Origin: a virus
Taxonomy: Duplodnaviria; Heunggongvirae; Uroviricota; Caudoviricetes
IMG/VR virus record: IMGVR_UViG_3300033067_000504
Span: 1-31,202 of that record
DNA: 31,202 bases
Reading direction: 5' to 3' (one strand)
Shown: positions 1-30,922 of the stretch, piece by piece
Numbering within the stretch: the stretch's first letter is position 1
Layout: each line of letters begins with the position of its first letter
Position numbers and translations under genes: made by a program
The notes under the pieces: generated by a model
Databases searched by the model: none
Told to the model about the DNA's origin: nothing
The model's input: the letters and a program-made list of their open reading frames with translations, nothing else

Positions 1-1
1 T

Positions 2-121
2 GCTGCTGCTGATGCTGCTGCTGCTTATGCTGCTGCTGATGCTCGGAGAAAAGCAAGAGAAGAAAACCAACAAATGACAGCCGATATAGTCCGCGCCACA
101 ATTAACCCCACCTGGATATGA
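2..121 (+). CDS. 3' end of an Ala-rich repeat protein (partial, 5'-truncated)
   Basis: Frame 2 reads AAADAAAAYAAADARRKAREENQQMTADIVRATINPTWI-stop. The GCT/GAT/TAT repeats are typical of phage AAYAAADA-repeat proteins; the TGA overlaps the ATG at 118. Confidence 0.8.
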   Translation, partial: AAADAAAAYAAADARRKAREENQQMTADIVRATINPTWI

Positions 122-468
122 ACCCAACAAAAGAAGAACTGGACGAGGCGATTGCATTTCTGAAAGATGGATTTCGTCAAGATGCCAGCATGATAAAAAC
201 AGCCCTCACCATCCTCACCCGTTACAGGGACGGAGAGCTGGTGGAGAAAGACCGATGGATAAGCGTTAAAGACAGGTTGCCGGAATTAGGCGAGGAGTTC
301 AATGTTATTGTTGATCTGAATGACGGAATGGAACCACTTGCCTCATGCGCTGACTGGAATGCTTTGAAAAAAGAATGGTTTTACATCGGTACCGAAATGA
401 AAATGACCGGAGTCACCCACTGGCAACCGTTACCGACCCCACCAACTAACCAAACAGAGAAGTCATGA
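118..468 (+). CDS. DUF551-like phage protein
   Basis: WISVKDRLPE ... VTHWQPLPTPP signature. Confidence 0.8.
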   Translation: MNPTKEELDEAIAFLKDGFRQDASMIKTALTILTRYRDGELVEKDRWISVKDRLPELGEEFNVIVDLNDGMEPLASCADWNALKKEWFYIGTEMKMTGVTHWQPLPTPPTNQTEKS

Positions 469-1665: not shown

Positions 1666-1971
1666 ATGACACAAATTTCTAATAGAATTGAAAGAAGGTG
1701 TAGTAATCCAAGCTGTAAAAAAGAGTTAAAATCTTGGGAAGCAGTTCAATGTACATCTTGTAAAGACTCATTTAATGTTGAGGGCTTTGAAAAAGCAATA
1801 AATGAAAATGCAAAATCATATACAAATTATTTGGCTAACCAGGAGGCAAGATCACAAAGTGGAGCACCCACAAATCATGCAACTGGACAACCCAAACCAC
1901 CCGAAAATAAAAGAGTTCCTACAGCGCAAGAGTGGTACGACGAGATGTACAACGGGATCGGAGCTGATTAG
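1666..1971 (+). CDS. hypothetical protein with Cys4 zinc-ribbon-like N-terminus
   Basis: CSNPSC ... CTSC, A-rich leader (aaaaaaca ATG), genome-typical A/T-ending codons; overlaps the polA ORF. Confidence 0.65.
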   Translation: MTQISNRIERRCSNPSCKKELKSWEAVQCTSCKDSFNVEGFEKAINENAKSYTNYLANQEARSQSGAPTNHATGQPKPPENKRVPTAQEWYDEMYNGIGAD

Positions 1972-4015
1972 GTTTGGTCACGATATAGAAAATAGAATAA
2001 GTTTTCCTTGTAAGGAGGCATTACTTCTCTCTTCATTTTGTAATGAGGATGGTGATATTCTAACAATAGATAATACATCAGTTAACAATAATGAGGTATT
2101 TGATGAGCAATTACTTAAGAGATGTTGGTTTATTGCTCATAATGCAGACCATGAAAAGCGTTGGGGAATTGCTACCAACTTTAATCCAATGCGATATGGT
2201 TGTACTATGGTTAATAGTAGAAGGCTTGTTGCTGGAGAAGATGGTTGGAGGAATGATCTCATTTCTGCAATAGTCAGGTATTTGGGGTTTGACGCTATAC
2301 CTGAGTGGATGAATAAAGATGTTAGAAATACTTTTGAGAATTGCAATTACTTTGTAACTGATCAAATTCTTTATAATGCTGCAGATACAATAAGATTACT
2401 TGCTTTGTATGACAAGCAAATGGAAGTAGCAGCCACACAAGGAAGAGTATTTGAACTTAATTCTCTACGTGGAAGATTAATTAGTGAGTTAGCATCTACA
2501 GAAATGTTAGGTATAGCTCATAACAAAGACAAATGGCTTGAAGTAGCCAATAATAGACAAATAAAAGCAGATAGAATATGTCAGGAACTAAACGAGTTAG
2601 TAAAAAATCAGTATCAGGTAGATCTGTCACTGGTAAACCCAGAGCTAAAAAAGAAACAAGAAAGCCTGGAAAAAAGACTACAAAAGCAAAATCTACGGTT
2701 AGAAAAATTACTCTTGCAACTGAAGAGGCTGGAAGAAGCTTCCAAAACTCATCTCAAGAGCTATCAACTAACCAAAACCCAAATAGACAAAATCACGAAT
2801 TCCCAGGAAACTCAAGAGGATTCCTTGGATACAGATTCTGGAATTAACTGGAGTAGTCCTAAACAGGTATTGACATTAATGAATATAGTTAATTGTCCTT
2901 TACCTGTAGGAAAAGATAAGAAAACAAAGAAAGATGTACCAAAAGTAAGTAAAGAAGCTAGAAATAGTTGGTTTACTAATCACAGTGATACACCTTTCTT
3001 TGATTTCATGACTAAGTTTGATAGCTACAAAAAGTTAATACACAATGTAAATTCTTTTGGAGCTAAATGGATAGACAAATATACTAACCCAGTAACAGGT
3101 AGAATACATACGTACTATAACCAGACTGGTACTACTACAGGTAGGTTTAGTTCTGGTGATAAAGCAAATGGTTATCCTAACATGCAACAAATACCTAAAG
3201 GTAAAGAGTATAGAGAATGTTTTGTTGCTGATCCAGGAAGGACTATTATTACAATAGACTTTAAGAATTGTGAGGGTATTATCATGATAGCTTTGTCTGG
3301 TGATTTAAACCTAAAAGCTATTACAGAATTAGAAGATAGTCACAGTTATTTAGGAACTAAATGCTGGAGAAATGTTTATAGACATAGGGGTAGTCCTTTA
3401 GCTGACACCTATGAAATGAATAAGTCTACTCCAGAAAAAGAGAAGGAAAGAGATATATTTAAGAACAGTGGTGGATTGTTTCCCGTTGCTTATGGAATAC
3501 ACGCTAGTAAAGTAGCAGCATCTGCAAAGGTATCTCTTGAAGAGGGACAAATCTTTATAGATACAATTAAAGCTGAAATACCAAAAGTAATATCTTTCTT
3601 AGATGGTAAATCAAGAGAGGCTGTGCAAACAGGATATGTGTTGCATAACTCTAGAACTAATTCAAGAAGAGGTTTTACTTCTGTACTTGATCACCTGCAT
3701 TATGGCTTTCCTCTGGATAAGTCTAATAAAGTAGAGGTTGAGATGGCAGCTAGAAATAGTCCTATACAAGGTTCAAATGCTGATATAATAGTTGAATCTA
3801 TTGTATCAGTAGCACTGTGGTCTAAATTATTTAAACAGGATGTAAGGTTGTTGTTACAGGTACATGATGAACTTGTGTATGACTGTAAGACAGAAGAGGC
3901 TGATTTTATTGCTGGTAAGATAGCTTCTATAATGAAAAGAACAGCACAAAAGTATTTAATCCCTGAAATATCAATGGGTGTTTCAGTACAAACAGGAGGA
4001 ACGTGGAAGAAGTAA
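1802..4015 (+). CDS. polA: family A DNA polymerase with 3'-5' exonuclease domain (start uncertain: 1802, 1877 or later)
   Basis: ExoI DIE, ExoII HNADHE, ExoIII YNAAD, TTTGRFSS..PNMQQIP, motif A DFKNCE, motif B RDIFK...F...YG, NSPIQGSNAD, motif C QVHDEL. Confidence 0.93.
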   Translation: MKMQNHIQIIWLTRRQDHKVEHPQIMQLDNPNHPKIKEFLQRKSGTTRCTTGSELIRFGHDIENRISFPCKEALLLSSFCNEDGDILTIDNTSVNNNEVFDEQLLKRCWFIAHNADHEKRWGIATNFNPMRYGCTMVNSRRLVAGEDGWRNDLISAIVRYLGFDAIPEWMNKDVRNTFENCNYFVTDQILYNAADTIRLLALYDKQMEVAATQGRVFELNSLRGRLISELASTEMLGIAHNKDKWLEVANNRQIKADRICQELNELVKNQYQVDLSLVNPELKKKQESLEKRLQKQNLRLEKLLLQLKRLEEASKTHLKSYQLTKTQIDKITNSQETQEDSLDTDSGINWSSPKQVLTLMNIVNCPLPVGKDKKTKKDVPKVSKEARNSWFTNHSDTPFFDFMTKFDSYKKLIHNVNSFGAKWIDKYTNPVTGRIHTYYNQTGTTTGRFSSGDKANGYPNMQQIPKGKEYRECFVADPGRTIITIDFKNCEGIIMIALSGDLNLKAITELEDSHSYLGTKCWRNVYRHRGSPLADTYEMNKSTPEKEKERDIFKNSGGLFPVAYGIHASKVAASAKVSLEEGQIFIDTIKAEIPKVISFLDGKSREAVQTGYVLHNSRTNSRRGFTSVLDHLHYGFPLDKSNKVEVEMAARNSPIQGSNADIIVESIVSVALWSKLFKQDVRLLLQVHDELVYDCKTEEADFIAGKIASIMKRTAQKYLIPEISMGVSVQTGGTWKK
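2578..2847 (+). CDS. candidate overprinted Lys/Ser/Thr-rich small protein in the -1 frame inside polA
   Basis: 89 aa ORF with genome-typical codon bias, while polA codons over the same span are atypically G/C-ending; the ATG has an AT-rich leader. Confidence 0.5.
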   Translation: MSGTKRVSKKSVSGRSVTGKPRAKKETRKPGKKTTKAKSTVRKITLATEEAGRSFQNSSQELSTNQNPNRQNHEFPGNSRGFLGYRFWN

Positions 4016-4341
4016 AAGAATTTAATGGCTACCAAAAGGAAGCTATGAAAAATAAGATATATGGTTATGGAGACAAAATCATATATCCTGTGTTAGGTCT
4101 TGGTAATGAGGCTGGTGAAGTGCAGGGGAAAGTAAAAAAAGTACTACGAGATAATGGTGGTAACTTTGATGGAGTATCTAGAAATGCTATTGCTGATGAA
4201 CTTGGTGATGTATTATGGTACTTAGCTGCTACAGCTGAAGATCTTGGATTTACTTTGCAAGAAATTGCAGAGATAAATATTAAGAAACTAACAGATCGTA
4301 GGATGCGTGGAGTTATACAAGGTTCAGGAGACAAGAGATGA
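4003..4341 (+). CDS. MazG-like nucleotide pyrophosphohydrolase
   Basis: LGLGNEAGEVQGKVKK ... ADELGDVLWY (ExxE/ExxD); GTG start preceded by AGGAGGA. Confidence 0.9.
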   Translation: MEEVKEFNGYQKEAMKNKIYGYGDKIIYPVLGLGNEAGEVQGKVKKVLRDNGGNFDGVSRNAIADELGDVLWYLAATAEDLGFTLQEIAEINIKKLTDRRMRGVIQGSGDKR

Positions 4342-28994: not shown

Positions 28995-29390
28995 ATGAAG
29001 AAAATAATGTATGTATTACTTCTAACTACTTTGGTTAGTTGTTGTAAAAAGGTTGACTGTCCTCCAGGAAGTCGTTTTGAGTGTGGTAAGGGTTGTGTTG
29101 CTAATACTCTAATTGACACTTTAAAACAAGAAGTTAAGCCTAGAGTTGAACAACTTATCAGAGAAAAACTGAATCAAAAGAATAAGCCAATACCAAGCTA
29201 CACTAAGTTTAAGGTATCTGACGTTGTTTGTGTTTGGGGTAAGCAAACTGGTGTAATTGTGGAGATAAGTTGGGGACGTGTCCCTGATGGACATGATCCT
29301 GTACTTGTTTATACAGTAGAGTTTGAGGATAGTAGCTACAGTAATGAGGAGTATTATGATACACAATTAACCTCCGGATCTTGCCGATGA
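28995..29390 (+). CDS. lipoprotein with Cys-rich N-terminus and SH3/KOW-like C-terminus
   Basis: MKKIMYVLLLTTLVSC lipobox; FKVSDVVCV...GVIVEI...YTVEF. Confidence 0.7.
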   Translation: MKKIMYVLLLTTLVSCCKKVDCPPGSRFECGKGCVANTLIDTLKQEVKPRVEQLIREKLNQKNKPIPSYTKFKVSDVVCVWGKQTGVIVEISWGRVPDGHDPVLVYTVEFEDSSYSNEEYYDTQLTSGSCR

Positions 29391-30922
29391 ACCCACTATT
29401 ATTAACAGATTTTTACAAGGTACATCACAATAAGATGTATCCTGATGGTATGACTAAACTCTACTCCAACTTAACTGCTCGTAAGAGTAGAATACCTGGA
29501 GTAGATAAAATTGTCTTCTTTGGTTTGCAGCATTTTGTACTAACTTATCTAATTGAAGCGTTTAACAAAGACTTCTTTCTTAAGAGTTATTATAAAGAAG
29601 GTGATAGTGTTGTTATAGGTAACATTGACACTAGCTTGGGTAGAGAAGCTATTAAAAAAGCTATGAGTATTAATTACTCAAAACATATTGGTGTAGACAC
29701 AAAGCATATTGAAGCATTGTGGGATTTAGGTTATCTTCCTATTGAGATTAAAGCTGTTCCAGAGGGTTCAAGAGTTCCTATAGGAGTACCTTGTTTAACC
29801 ATTACCAATACTCATCCAGACTTTGGTTGGCTTACAAATTATCTTGAAACATTGATGTCCTGTATGCTTTGGCAGCCTATAACGTCAGCAACAATTGCTT
29901 ATGAATATAAGAAACTACTTACAAAATATGCGCTTGAAACTACAGGATCAGCAGACTTTGTACAATGGCAAGGTCATGATTTTTCAATGCGTGGAATGTC
30001 TTCTGTGGAGTCTGCCATTCTTTCTGGTATGGCTCATTTGCTCAGCTTCACTGGGACGGACACTATCCCAGCCATCTACCAGTTGGAATCTAGTTATGAC
30101 GCTACAGGCCTTATTGGTGCTTCTGTTCCCGCAACTGAACATTCGGTTATGTGTATGGGAGAAAAAGAAAGCGAAATCCAAACATTTAGCCGTTTGCTTA
30201 AGCTGCATCCTATTGGTATACTATCTGTTGTTTCTGACACATGGGATCTATGGAGAGTATGTACTGAATATCTTCCAGCTTTAAAGAATGAGATCTTAGC
30301 AAGAGATGGTAAACTTGTTATCAGACCTGATTCTGGTGATCCTGTAGATATTATTTGCGGTACCAATAGTAATCCTGCTAATAAATATCATGAAGAAGTA
30401 ACACCAGAAAGCAAGGGAGTAATAGAACTTCTTTGGGATATATTTGGAGGAACAATTGTAAAAGGAAATGATGGAAAAGAATACAAACAACTGGATAGCC
30501 ACATTGGAGCGATTTATGGTGATTCTATCACCCTCGAAAGAGCTGATCAAATCTGTAGACGACTTCAAGCAAAAGGTTTTGCTTCTACCAATCTCGTGCT
30601 TGGGATTGGGTCTTATACTTATCAGTATAATACTCGTGATACTTTTGGGTTCGCGGTAAAAGCTACCTATGGTGAAGTTACTAAAGATGGTAATGTAGAA
30701 TCCAGAGAAATCTGGAAAGATCCAGTAACTGATGATGGTACTAAAAGAAGTAAGAAAGGCTTACTTCAAGTAATTGGTGATTCTGAAGGGAATATTATTG
30801 GAGTTAAAGACCAGTGTATACCAGCAGAAGAACAACTTGGAATGCTACAAACAGTATTCAAAGATGGTAAACTAGTGAAAAAGACCACACTAGAGGAAAT
30901 TAGGTCTAAACTTAAAGTTTAA
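29387..30922 (+). CDS. nadV: nicotinamide phosphoribosyltransferase family protein (NAMPT or Namat); ATG at 29387
   Basis: LLTDFYKVHH, HDFSMRG, SVPATEHSVM, SVVSDTWD, VIRPDSGDP, IYGDSIT, GIGSYTYQ, KDPVTD..K.SKKG. Confidence 0.95.
   Translation: MNPLLLTDFYKVHHNKMYPDGMTKLYSNLTARKSRIPGVDKIVFFGLQHFVLTYLIEAFNKDFFLKSYYKEGDSVVIGNIDTSLGREAIKKAMSINYSKHIGVDTKHIEALWDLGYLPIEIKAVPEGSRVPIGVPCLTITNTHPDFGWLTNYLETLMSCMLWQPITSATIAYEYKKLLTKYALETTGSADFVQWQGHDFSMRGMSSVESAILSGMAHLLSFTGTDTIPAIYQLESSYDATGLIGASVPATEHSVMCMGEKESEIQTFSRLLKLHPIGILSVVSDTWDLWRVCTEYLPALKNEILARDGKLVIRPDSGDPVDIICGTNSNPANKYHEEVTPESKGVIELLWDIFGGTIVKGNDGKEYKQLDSHIGAIYGDSITLERADQICRRLQAKGFASTNLVLGIGSYTYQYNTRDTFGFAVKATYGEVTKDGNVESREIWKDPVTDDGTKRSKKGLLQVIGDSEGNIIGVKDQCIPAEEQLGMLQTVFKDGKLVKKTTLEEIRSKLKV

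Follow-up and report, generated by a model that had tools for sequence, protein, structure and literature searches.

The polA gene of a tailed phage, located in the first 31.2 kb of a 95.2-kb contig (positions 1 to 31,202 of IMG/VR record IMGVR_UViG_3300033067_000504; this stretch is called the window), very probably has a second protein-coding gene overprinted on it, with its own start codon and a fast-evolving, disordered product that ends in lineage-specific tails. polA occupies positions 1802 to 4015 of the + strand, and the nested open reading frame (ORF) of 89 codons plus a TAA stop codon lies on the same strand at positions 2578 to 2847, in the -1 (= +2) frame of polA. At the level of sequence, frame-specific selection against stop codons, a conserved start codon and a restricted phylogenetic spread could be demonstrated, and we infer that translation starts at the ATG.

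The longest polA ORF comprises 737 codons; its product is a DNA polymerase of family A that has a 3'-5' exonuclease domain (Pfam DNA_pol_A, E = 1e-48) and for which 127 homologues were found, roughly 75 of them from this phage group. The nested frame is open from stop to stop between 2575 and 2847, with the ATG at 2578 and the TAA at 2845-2847, and the extent and frame given in the original prediction of an overprinted gene at this place were exact. Recounting the four-fold degenerate codons also gave identical numbers: A or T is the third base in 39 of 42 for the -1 frame and in 16 of 30 for polA within the region, compared with 199 of 227 for polA outside it. The A/T endings of the -1 frame codons are forced by the second codon positions of PolA. 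Among the same-strand off-frame open stretches of the window, the nested ORF is the second longest.

The number of stop codons expected in the nested frame was calculated with a null model in which the PolA protein was kept fixed and synonymous codons were drawn from the codon usage of polA itself. For the window 8.2 stops were expected and none was seen, and an exact calculation gave a probability of 1.4e-5 for an open frame. When codons were resampled with the usage of the window, again with the PolA protein fixed, the frame stayed open in 0 of 5000 cases. A stop in the -1 frame requires a T at the wobble position of a polA codon that precedes a codon beginning with AA, AG or GA. The window has 37 such sites, of which 16 are removed since no codon for K, E or Q has T as its third base. 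At the other 21, where a T-ending synonym exists and T would give a stop, T was absent without exception, often through use of the rare codons CTG, CTC, TCC, ACC, ACG and GAC.

For a comparative analysis, polA DNA was taken from diverged relatives, designated by L numbers where they have to be told apart. The first set consisted of 17 distinct genes carrying the nested ORF (carriers), with 47-68% PolA identity. Three carriers were added later, one of them with only 41% PolA identity, which gave 20 carriers in total (41-68%). The orthologous -1 frame was open in all 20 over 84-121 codons (85-115 in the first 17), and the +1 frame over the same stretch contained 8-15 stops in the first 17 carriers. 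Most relatives terminate at or a few codons from the I-N-W motif of PolA; in the window the stop codon (2845-2847, + strand) is formed from ATT|AAC of this conserved motif, at a position shared by most relatives. With the null model applied to each of the 17 carriers separately, 5-11 stops were expected per gene. No stop was found in 14 of them and a single one, near an end of the frame, in the other three, and the probabilities of an open frame ranged from 8e-7 to 2e-3. Ten more distant or ORF-less relatives contained 5-15 stops, as expected, which indicates that the null model is calibrated.

The depletion of stops could be traced to single wobble positions. Within the stretch 117 stop-making wobble T's were expected in the 17 carriers and one was seen (ratio 0.01). 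For comparison, the ratio of seen to expected T was 0.85 at those wobble sites of the stretch where a T is harmless, 1.03 for stop-making sites in the rest of polA and 1.07 for those of the stretch in relatives without the ORF. Divided by segment (PolA residues 260-296, 296-333 and 333-345), 57, 45 and 15 stops were expected and 1, 0 and 0 were seen. T is depleted only where a stop would arise, and therefore a process that is aware of the frame, that is translation, would have to be responsible. An overprinted gene within polA is thus strongly supported: the frame and its ATG are kept in 20 of 20 relatives, and sister lineages with the same PolA insert carry the expected stops. It had been proposed to check for both stop avoidance and synonymous-site conservation. 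Stop avoidance was clearly found, and a general synonymous conservation was not (see below).

Eleven near-identical contigs (L003-L013) differ from the window by 0-1 base in polA, except for indels in two long-read-like assemblies; polA is nearly invariant among them and they hold no synonymous-site information. In one of them, L005 (a contig of ENA assembly ERZ1714334, polA at 2119-4334), polA was called in several fragments through 11 small indels, which looks like a long-read assembly error rather than a truly split polymerase. In a GenBank phage set no match was obtained by blastn, nor by tblastn at E <= 1e-30. Short contigs covering parts of polA, including 2428-2758, were present in three wastewater metatranscriptome runs; such contigs cannot show frame, transcript ends or transcription.

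The start codon (2578-2580, + strand) consists of the last base of Ile259 (ATA) and the first two bases of Cys260 (TGT) of PolA. The codon preceding TGY/TGG ended in A in all of the first 17 carriers (ATA in 14, GTA, CTA and TTA in one each), although 7 of 17 were expected from codon usage (product of probabilities 2e-7). The three added carriers retained the ATG as well. It survives changes in PolA from Ile to Val or Leu and from Cys to Trp, and is not found at that site in the ORF-less relatives L047 (CTG TCT) and L049 (ATT TGT). Going upstream from the ATG, the -1 frame closes after 1-18 codons in every carrier. The genes of this phage have A-rich leaders without Shine-Dalgarno sites, as seen for 36 other genes in the window, and the stretch in front of the nested ATG (2553-2577, + strand, within the polA coding sequence) resembles them, in agreement with the original prediction. 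The leader is unstructured; the predicted fold of 2540-2620 reached only -4.6 kcal/mol (z = -0.11). Independent initiation at the internal ATG is the best-supported route of entry, as judged from the conservation of the ATG and the lack of conservation of frameshift signals.

The spread of the ORF is narrower than that of its host gene. In an IQ-TREE phylogeny the first 17 carriers formed one branch with 98/100 support, and the ORF is absent from L047, L049 and L024-L031. Terminal branches had lengths of 0.06-0.84 substitutions per site (median ~0.4, mostly 0.3-0.8) and are so long that synonymous sites are saturated between most pairs. In a quick FastTree calculation with the three added genes, carrier L054 adjoined the ORF-less L049. 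Either the ORF would have arisen at the base of a wider group and been lost in L047 and L049, or this part of the tree is unresolved.

The part of PolA under the nested frame is older. The AlphaFold2 (AF2) model of PolA had a predicted local distance difference test score (pLDDT) of 90 and contained helices at residues 242-270, 280-312 and 319-341 (pLDDT 83-92), followed by a linker at ~342-352 of low confidence (pLDDT 66-72). The second and third helices form a helical hairpin insert (2639-2824, + strand) that makes up the polA-frame content of the overlap; solved PolA structures align with PolA only from residue 329 or ~395 on. The insert is conserved in the polA frame and found in all relatives, with R299, K315, K319 and Y321 invariant, and it is also present in relatives without the nested ORF (L047, L049, L024-L026). 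It is therefore concluded that this lineage-specific insert predates the nested frame, which was laid over an existing part of the polymerase.

The nested protein of the window has a net charge of +16, and values of +6 to +19 were calculated for 16 of the 20 homologues. Its AF2 model, calculated from a 16-row alignment, had a pLDDT of 56 with one low-confidence helix at residues 37-64 and was otherwise disordered. A prediction of the complex of PolA with the nested protein scored 0.01, which speaks neither for nor against binding. No family match above noise was obtained for the nested products in Pfam and PHROG; the best profile match, between the cysteine motif of L055 and phrog_19644 "DNA binding protein" (E = 1e-3), serves as a lead only. 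The best score in the ESM Atlas was 0.83, with low recognition and not informative, and the nearest Atlas cluster with a named family was HC2 at 0.75, which is within the chance range. None of ten orthologous nested products was present among 15 billion called proteins, and a search of the literature gave no description of this ORF.

The C-terminal tail in the window (nested residues 74-89, EFPGNSRGFLGYRFWN; 2797-2844, + strand) lies over the poorly conserved PolA linker. In seven relatives from five sublineages a tail motif [YF]NAR[VT]GxxGxW was observed over this linker. In this segment the -1 frame reached 54% identity and polA 31%; of the polA codon positions, the wobble base was conserved best (0.67 vs 0.46 for position 2), which is more extreme than in any of 586 polA windows. 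The only other place where the wobble position exceeded position 2 was the 5' end of polA, which is overlapped by another ORF and serves as a positive control. Cys-rich tails were found in four lineages, with CxxC-x10-CxxC in L055 and others in L046, L043 and L052. In the closest pair, synonymous differences amounted to 0.17 inside the overlap and 0.33 outside (p = 0.007); in two other close pairs the difference was not significant. Two relatives, L055 (1101-1466) and L040 (1322-1666), have 20-40 extra low-complexity residues in the PolA linker, and their nested proteins are longer (121 and 114 amino acids, respectively): L055 gained the CxxC-x10-CxxC motif and L040 a helical, coiled-coil-like extension.

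Several observations weigh against an overprinted protein-coding gene. Over its whole length the identity of the product (0.242) hardly exceeded that imposed by PolA conservation (0.231), and at identical PolA residues codon identity was 0.446 in the overlap vs 0.465 elsewhere, so that no general excess of synonymous conservation was detected. The charge is not conserved (L040 -6, L052 -4, L055 -2, L054 0), and K+R were not enriched over the null from PolA and codon usage (361 seen, 400 expected). The C-terminal motif was chosen after seeing the data and is supportive only. The ORF can be lost, as it is missing in L047 and L049. In L045 the ATG is directly followed by TGA, a stop at codon 2, with the remaining frame open. 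Finally, an internal start must compete with ribosomes elongating polA. Regarding L045 (1077-1340), 85 open codons follow the TGA, the next ATG is at codon 27, and a version of the Arg-Gly-Trp tail is kept at the end; a recent lesion or a sequencing error may account for the TGA, or the product may be shorter.

Most of the nested protein is nearly free to vary, given that its identity equals what PolA imposes, and this fits the published pattern of overprinted genes. Fast-evolving products, odd codon usage and a restricted range are the signature of overprinted viral genes (PMC3494269, PMC8227390), near-free variation is the pattern of young or weakly constrained ones (PMC3494269), and disordered overlapping proteins show a similar variability (PMC8227390). 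The basic or acidic character of the product follows the use of A- or G-ending codons in polA, since the first base of each -1 codon is the polA wobble base. The description of the product as basic and histone-like therefore did not hold up as a selected property, given the lack of a family match, the chance-level likeness to HC2, the unenriched K+R and the four neutral or acidic homologues among 20; "histone-like" refers to composition only.

As selection is seen mainly on the start and on openness, and for most of the length neither on residues nor on charge or composition, it might be asked whether translation matters and the peptide does not, the nested reading acting like a long regulatory ORF that tunes the stability or structure of polA mRNA or the output of PolA. 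This is unlikely, as such a role needs no frame of 84-121 codons ending at one conserved place, and a functional protein is favoured by the C-terminal motif, with its stronger conservation in the -1 frame than in that of polA, by the recurring Cys-rich tails (L055, L046, L043, L052) and by the reduced synonymous change in the closest pair. We also know of no such regulatory mechanism for an in-gene ORF on the same strand.

Programmed -1 frameshifting, by which ribosomes would produce an exonuclease-only PolA fragment with a -1-frame tail and the ATG would be incidental, had been suggested by analogy with the tau/gamma pair of E. coli dnaX, and appears still less probable. Both slippery heptamers of that suggestion are present in the polA frame of the + strand, A_AAA_AAG at 2647-2653 (CTA AAA AAG) and A_AAA_AAT at 2602-2608 (GTA AAA AAT), and both lie downstream of the last upstream -1 stop. 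The open frame behind the interrupted ATG of L045 would also suit this route, and a frame kept open by selection with its residues unconstrained is what one would expect of a mere tail. However, the heptamers are not conserved. At the place of the first one A_AAA_AAG was found in two of 17 relatives and A_AAA_AAA in a third, and the sequence also occurs in the ORF-less L047; the second was found in the window only. No X_XXY_YYZ heptamer was common to the carriers, and five of 17 had none anywhere in the region, so that A_AAA_AAG at 2647-2653 probably represents merely Lys-Lys codons. The site in E. coli dnaX has two stimulators, a Shine-Dalgarno-like element upstream and a hairpin downstream, and only one codon is read in the -1 frame before it closes. 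The window has the A_AAA_AAG heptamer of dnaX, likewise within a gene for replication, and the -1 frame behind it is open, but neither stimulator is present: the fold of 2654-2733 gave -8.3 kcal/mol (z = +0.29), in line with the absence of a stimulatory hairpin reported in the original prediction, and direct reading of 2630-2646 revealed no GGAGG-like or other Shine-Dalgarno-like stimulator. Frameshifting moreover leaves the retention of the ATG in all 20 carriers unexplained, and the frame closes shortly upstream of the ATG in every carrier. Frameshifting to the proposed exonuclease-only product is therefore not supported as the conserved mechanism.

That a K/E/Q/L-rich coiled coil and a local base bias left the -1 frame open by chance, for which the forced A/T endings and the 16 stop sites removed by K, E and Q codons might speak, is refuted by a null that predicts 5-11 stops per gene even though the PolA protein is already fixed in it, by the 5-15 stops in relatives with the same insert and no ORF, by the site-specific depletion of T (0.01 vs 0.85) and by the 8-15 stops of the +1 frame. 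Two further candidates were rejected. An intein with an overprinted nuclease does not agree with a host frame that is a conserved helical hairpin in all relatives; neither frame matched an intein or nuclease family, and the nested product has no endonuclease motif. Termination-reinitiation giving a polymerase-only PolA was rejected because the alignment shows no conservation of the in-frame ATG that follows the nested stop by ~30 nt.

For an overprinted gene with independent initiation, the following course of events is proposed. The -1 frame across the pre-existing helical-hairpin insert would have become an ORF in the common ancestor of this group of uncultured, presumably crAss-like phages and would since have been retained by selection. 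Ribosomes would initiate independently at the internal ATG at 2578, within its A-rich, unstructured, Shine-Dalgarno-less leader, read 84-121 codons and terminate at the I-N-W motif of PolA. The product would be small and intrinsically disordered, with a body that evolves about as fast as the PolA frame permits and a lineage-specific C-terminal tail, which would be of an aromatic-Arg-Gly-Trp type in some lineages and a four-cysteine, zinc-knuckle-like type in others. As to its role, the basic disordered body, the aromatic/Arg/Gly or Cys4 tail and the location on a polymerase message lead to the tentative guess that the nested protein might be a nucleic-acid-binding replication accessory made from the polA message. 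A more specific version is somewhat more doubtful still: the gene, born de novo on the insert, might partly drive the evolution of the stretch, with the PolA linker as a passenger of the tail, and encode a composition-driven, disordered cofactor of the replisome that binds nucleic acid and whose dose is tied to that of polA by the shared mRNA. The view of the linker as a passenger is based on the gain of a knuckle or helix in the lineages with extra linker (L055, L040) and on the wobble position being best conserved in seven tails.

Overprinting itself is well known from Rz1, from genes B, E and K of phiX174 and from the spacer/pre-S overlap of hepatitis B virus (HBV). In large double-stranded DNA (dsDNA) phages, long genes nested out of frame are considered rare, and gene callers forbid them. 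Rz1 of lambda-like tailed dsDNA phages is nested out of frame on the same strand in Rz and has its own internal start; its frame is +1 and its product a lipoprotein that has a recognisable signal sequence and acts in lysis together with Rz. The nested ORF resembles it as a complete same-strand, out-of-frame gene within a larger gene of a tailed dsDNA phage, and differs in that the host gene encodes a DNA polymerase, the product is predicted to be disordered and the frame is -1. Genes B (in A), K and E (in D) of phiX174, a phage with a single-stranded DNA (ssDNA) genome of 5.4 kb, are likewise overprinted and have known roles (scaffold, lysis). The gene wholly inside another in a shifted frame is the common feature, whereas the small ssDNA genome and the products of known role set phiX174 apart. 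In the overlap of the HBV polymerase spacer with pre-S1, and in apple stem grooving virus, where the movement protein overlies the replicase-coat linker, both frames vary a great deal, and disorder is thought to ease the conflict between them (PMC8227390, PMC9093120). In these viruses too a polymerase or replicase gene carries the second gene where it is linker-like and least constrained. Their genomes, however, are small and size-limited with overlap as the rule, unlike a 95-kb dsDNA phage, and the polymerase part overlapped in the window is mostly a confidently folded hairpin (pLDDT 83-92), with only the last ~15 codons over the linker.

The case offers an unusually clean comparative proof of overprinting, with a calibrated null, ORF-less sister lineages and a conserved start codon, and its origin can be dated relative to a pre-existing insert of the polymerase. 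It could serve as a natural system for the birth of a new protein inside the gene of an essential enzyme and for what "function" means in a long-open ORF with almost no residue-level constraint. The odd codon usage within polA is given a concrete cause, and annotations of this phage group omit a conserved gene of the replication module.

The replication module continues downstream of polA with genes for MazG, a helicase and a primase. At the other end of polA, a 101-codon ORF (1666-1971) runs into the longest polA ORF at its 5' end (1802-1971). In seven relatives the polA wobble base is better conserved there than position 2 (0.63 vs 0.37, alignment columns ~43-50), and PolA residues 45-53 are poorly modelled (AF2 pLDDT below 50). 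On both grounds the other frame is probably coding in 1802-1971, and the true polA start may be located further downstream or the stretch may be dual-coding. The longest same-strand off-frame open stretch of the window, of 133 codons, is found at 29883-30284, in the +1 frame of a nicotinamide phosphoribosyltransferase gene (29381-30922).

Upstream of polA, a 34-base stretch (1508-1541) that is unique in the genome occurred as separate short contigs with 60-130x depth in four of four runs, and several long assemblies of this phage start or break near ~1512. This suggests that 1508-1541 is a junction of a conserved with a variable part that is common to many related phages. The window has a GC content of 35%, and a 14.4-kb ORF lies on the opposite strand, features that, with the repeated ends of the contig, would fit a crAss-like phage. 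The very first bases of the contig form a (GCT)n-like repeat, and ~190 bases at the start of the window (1-190) are repeated at the other end of the contig (95012-95202), which fits a complete genome that is either circularly closed or terminally redundant.

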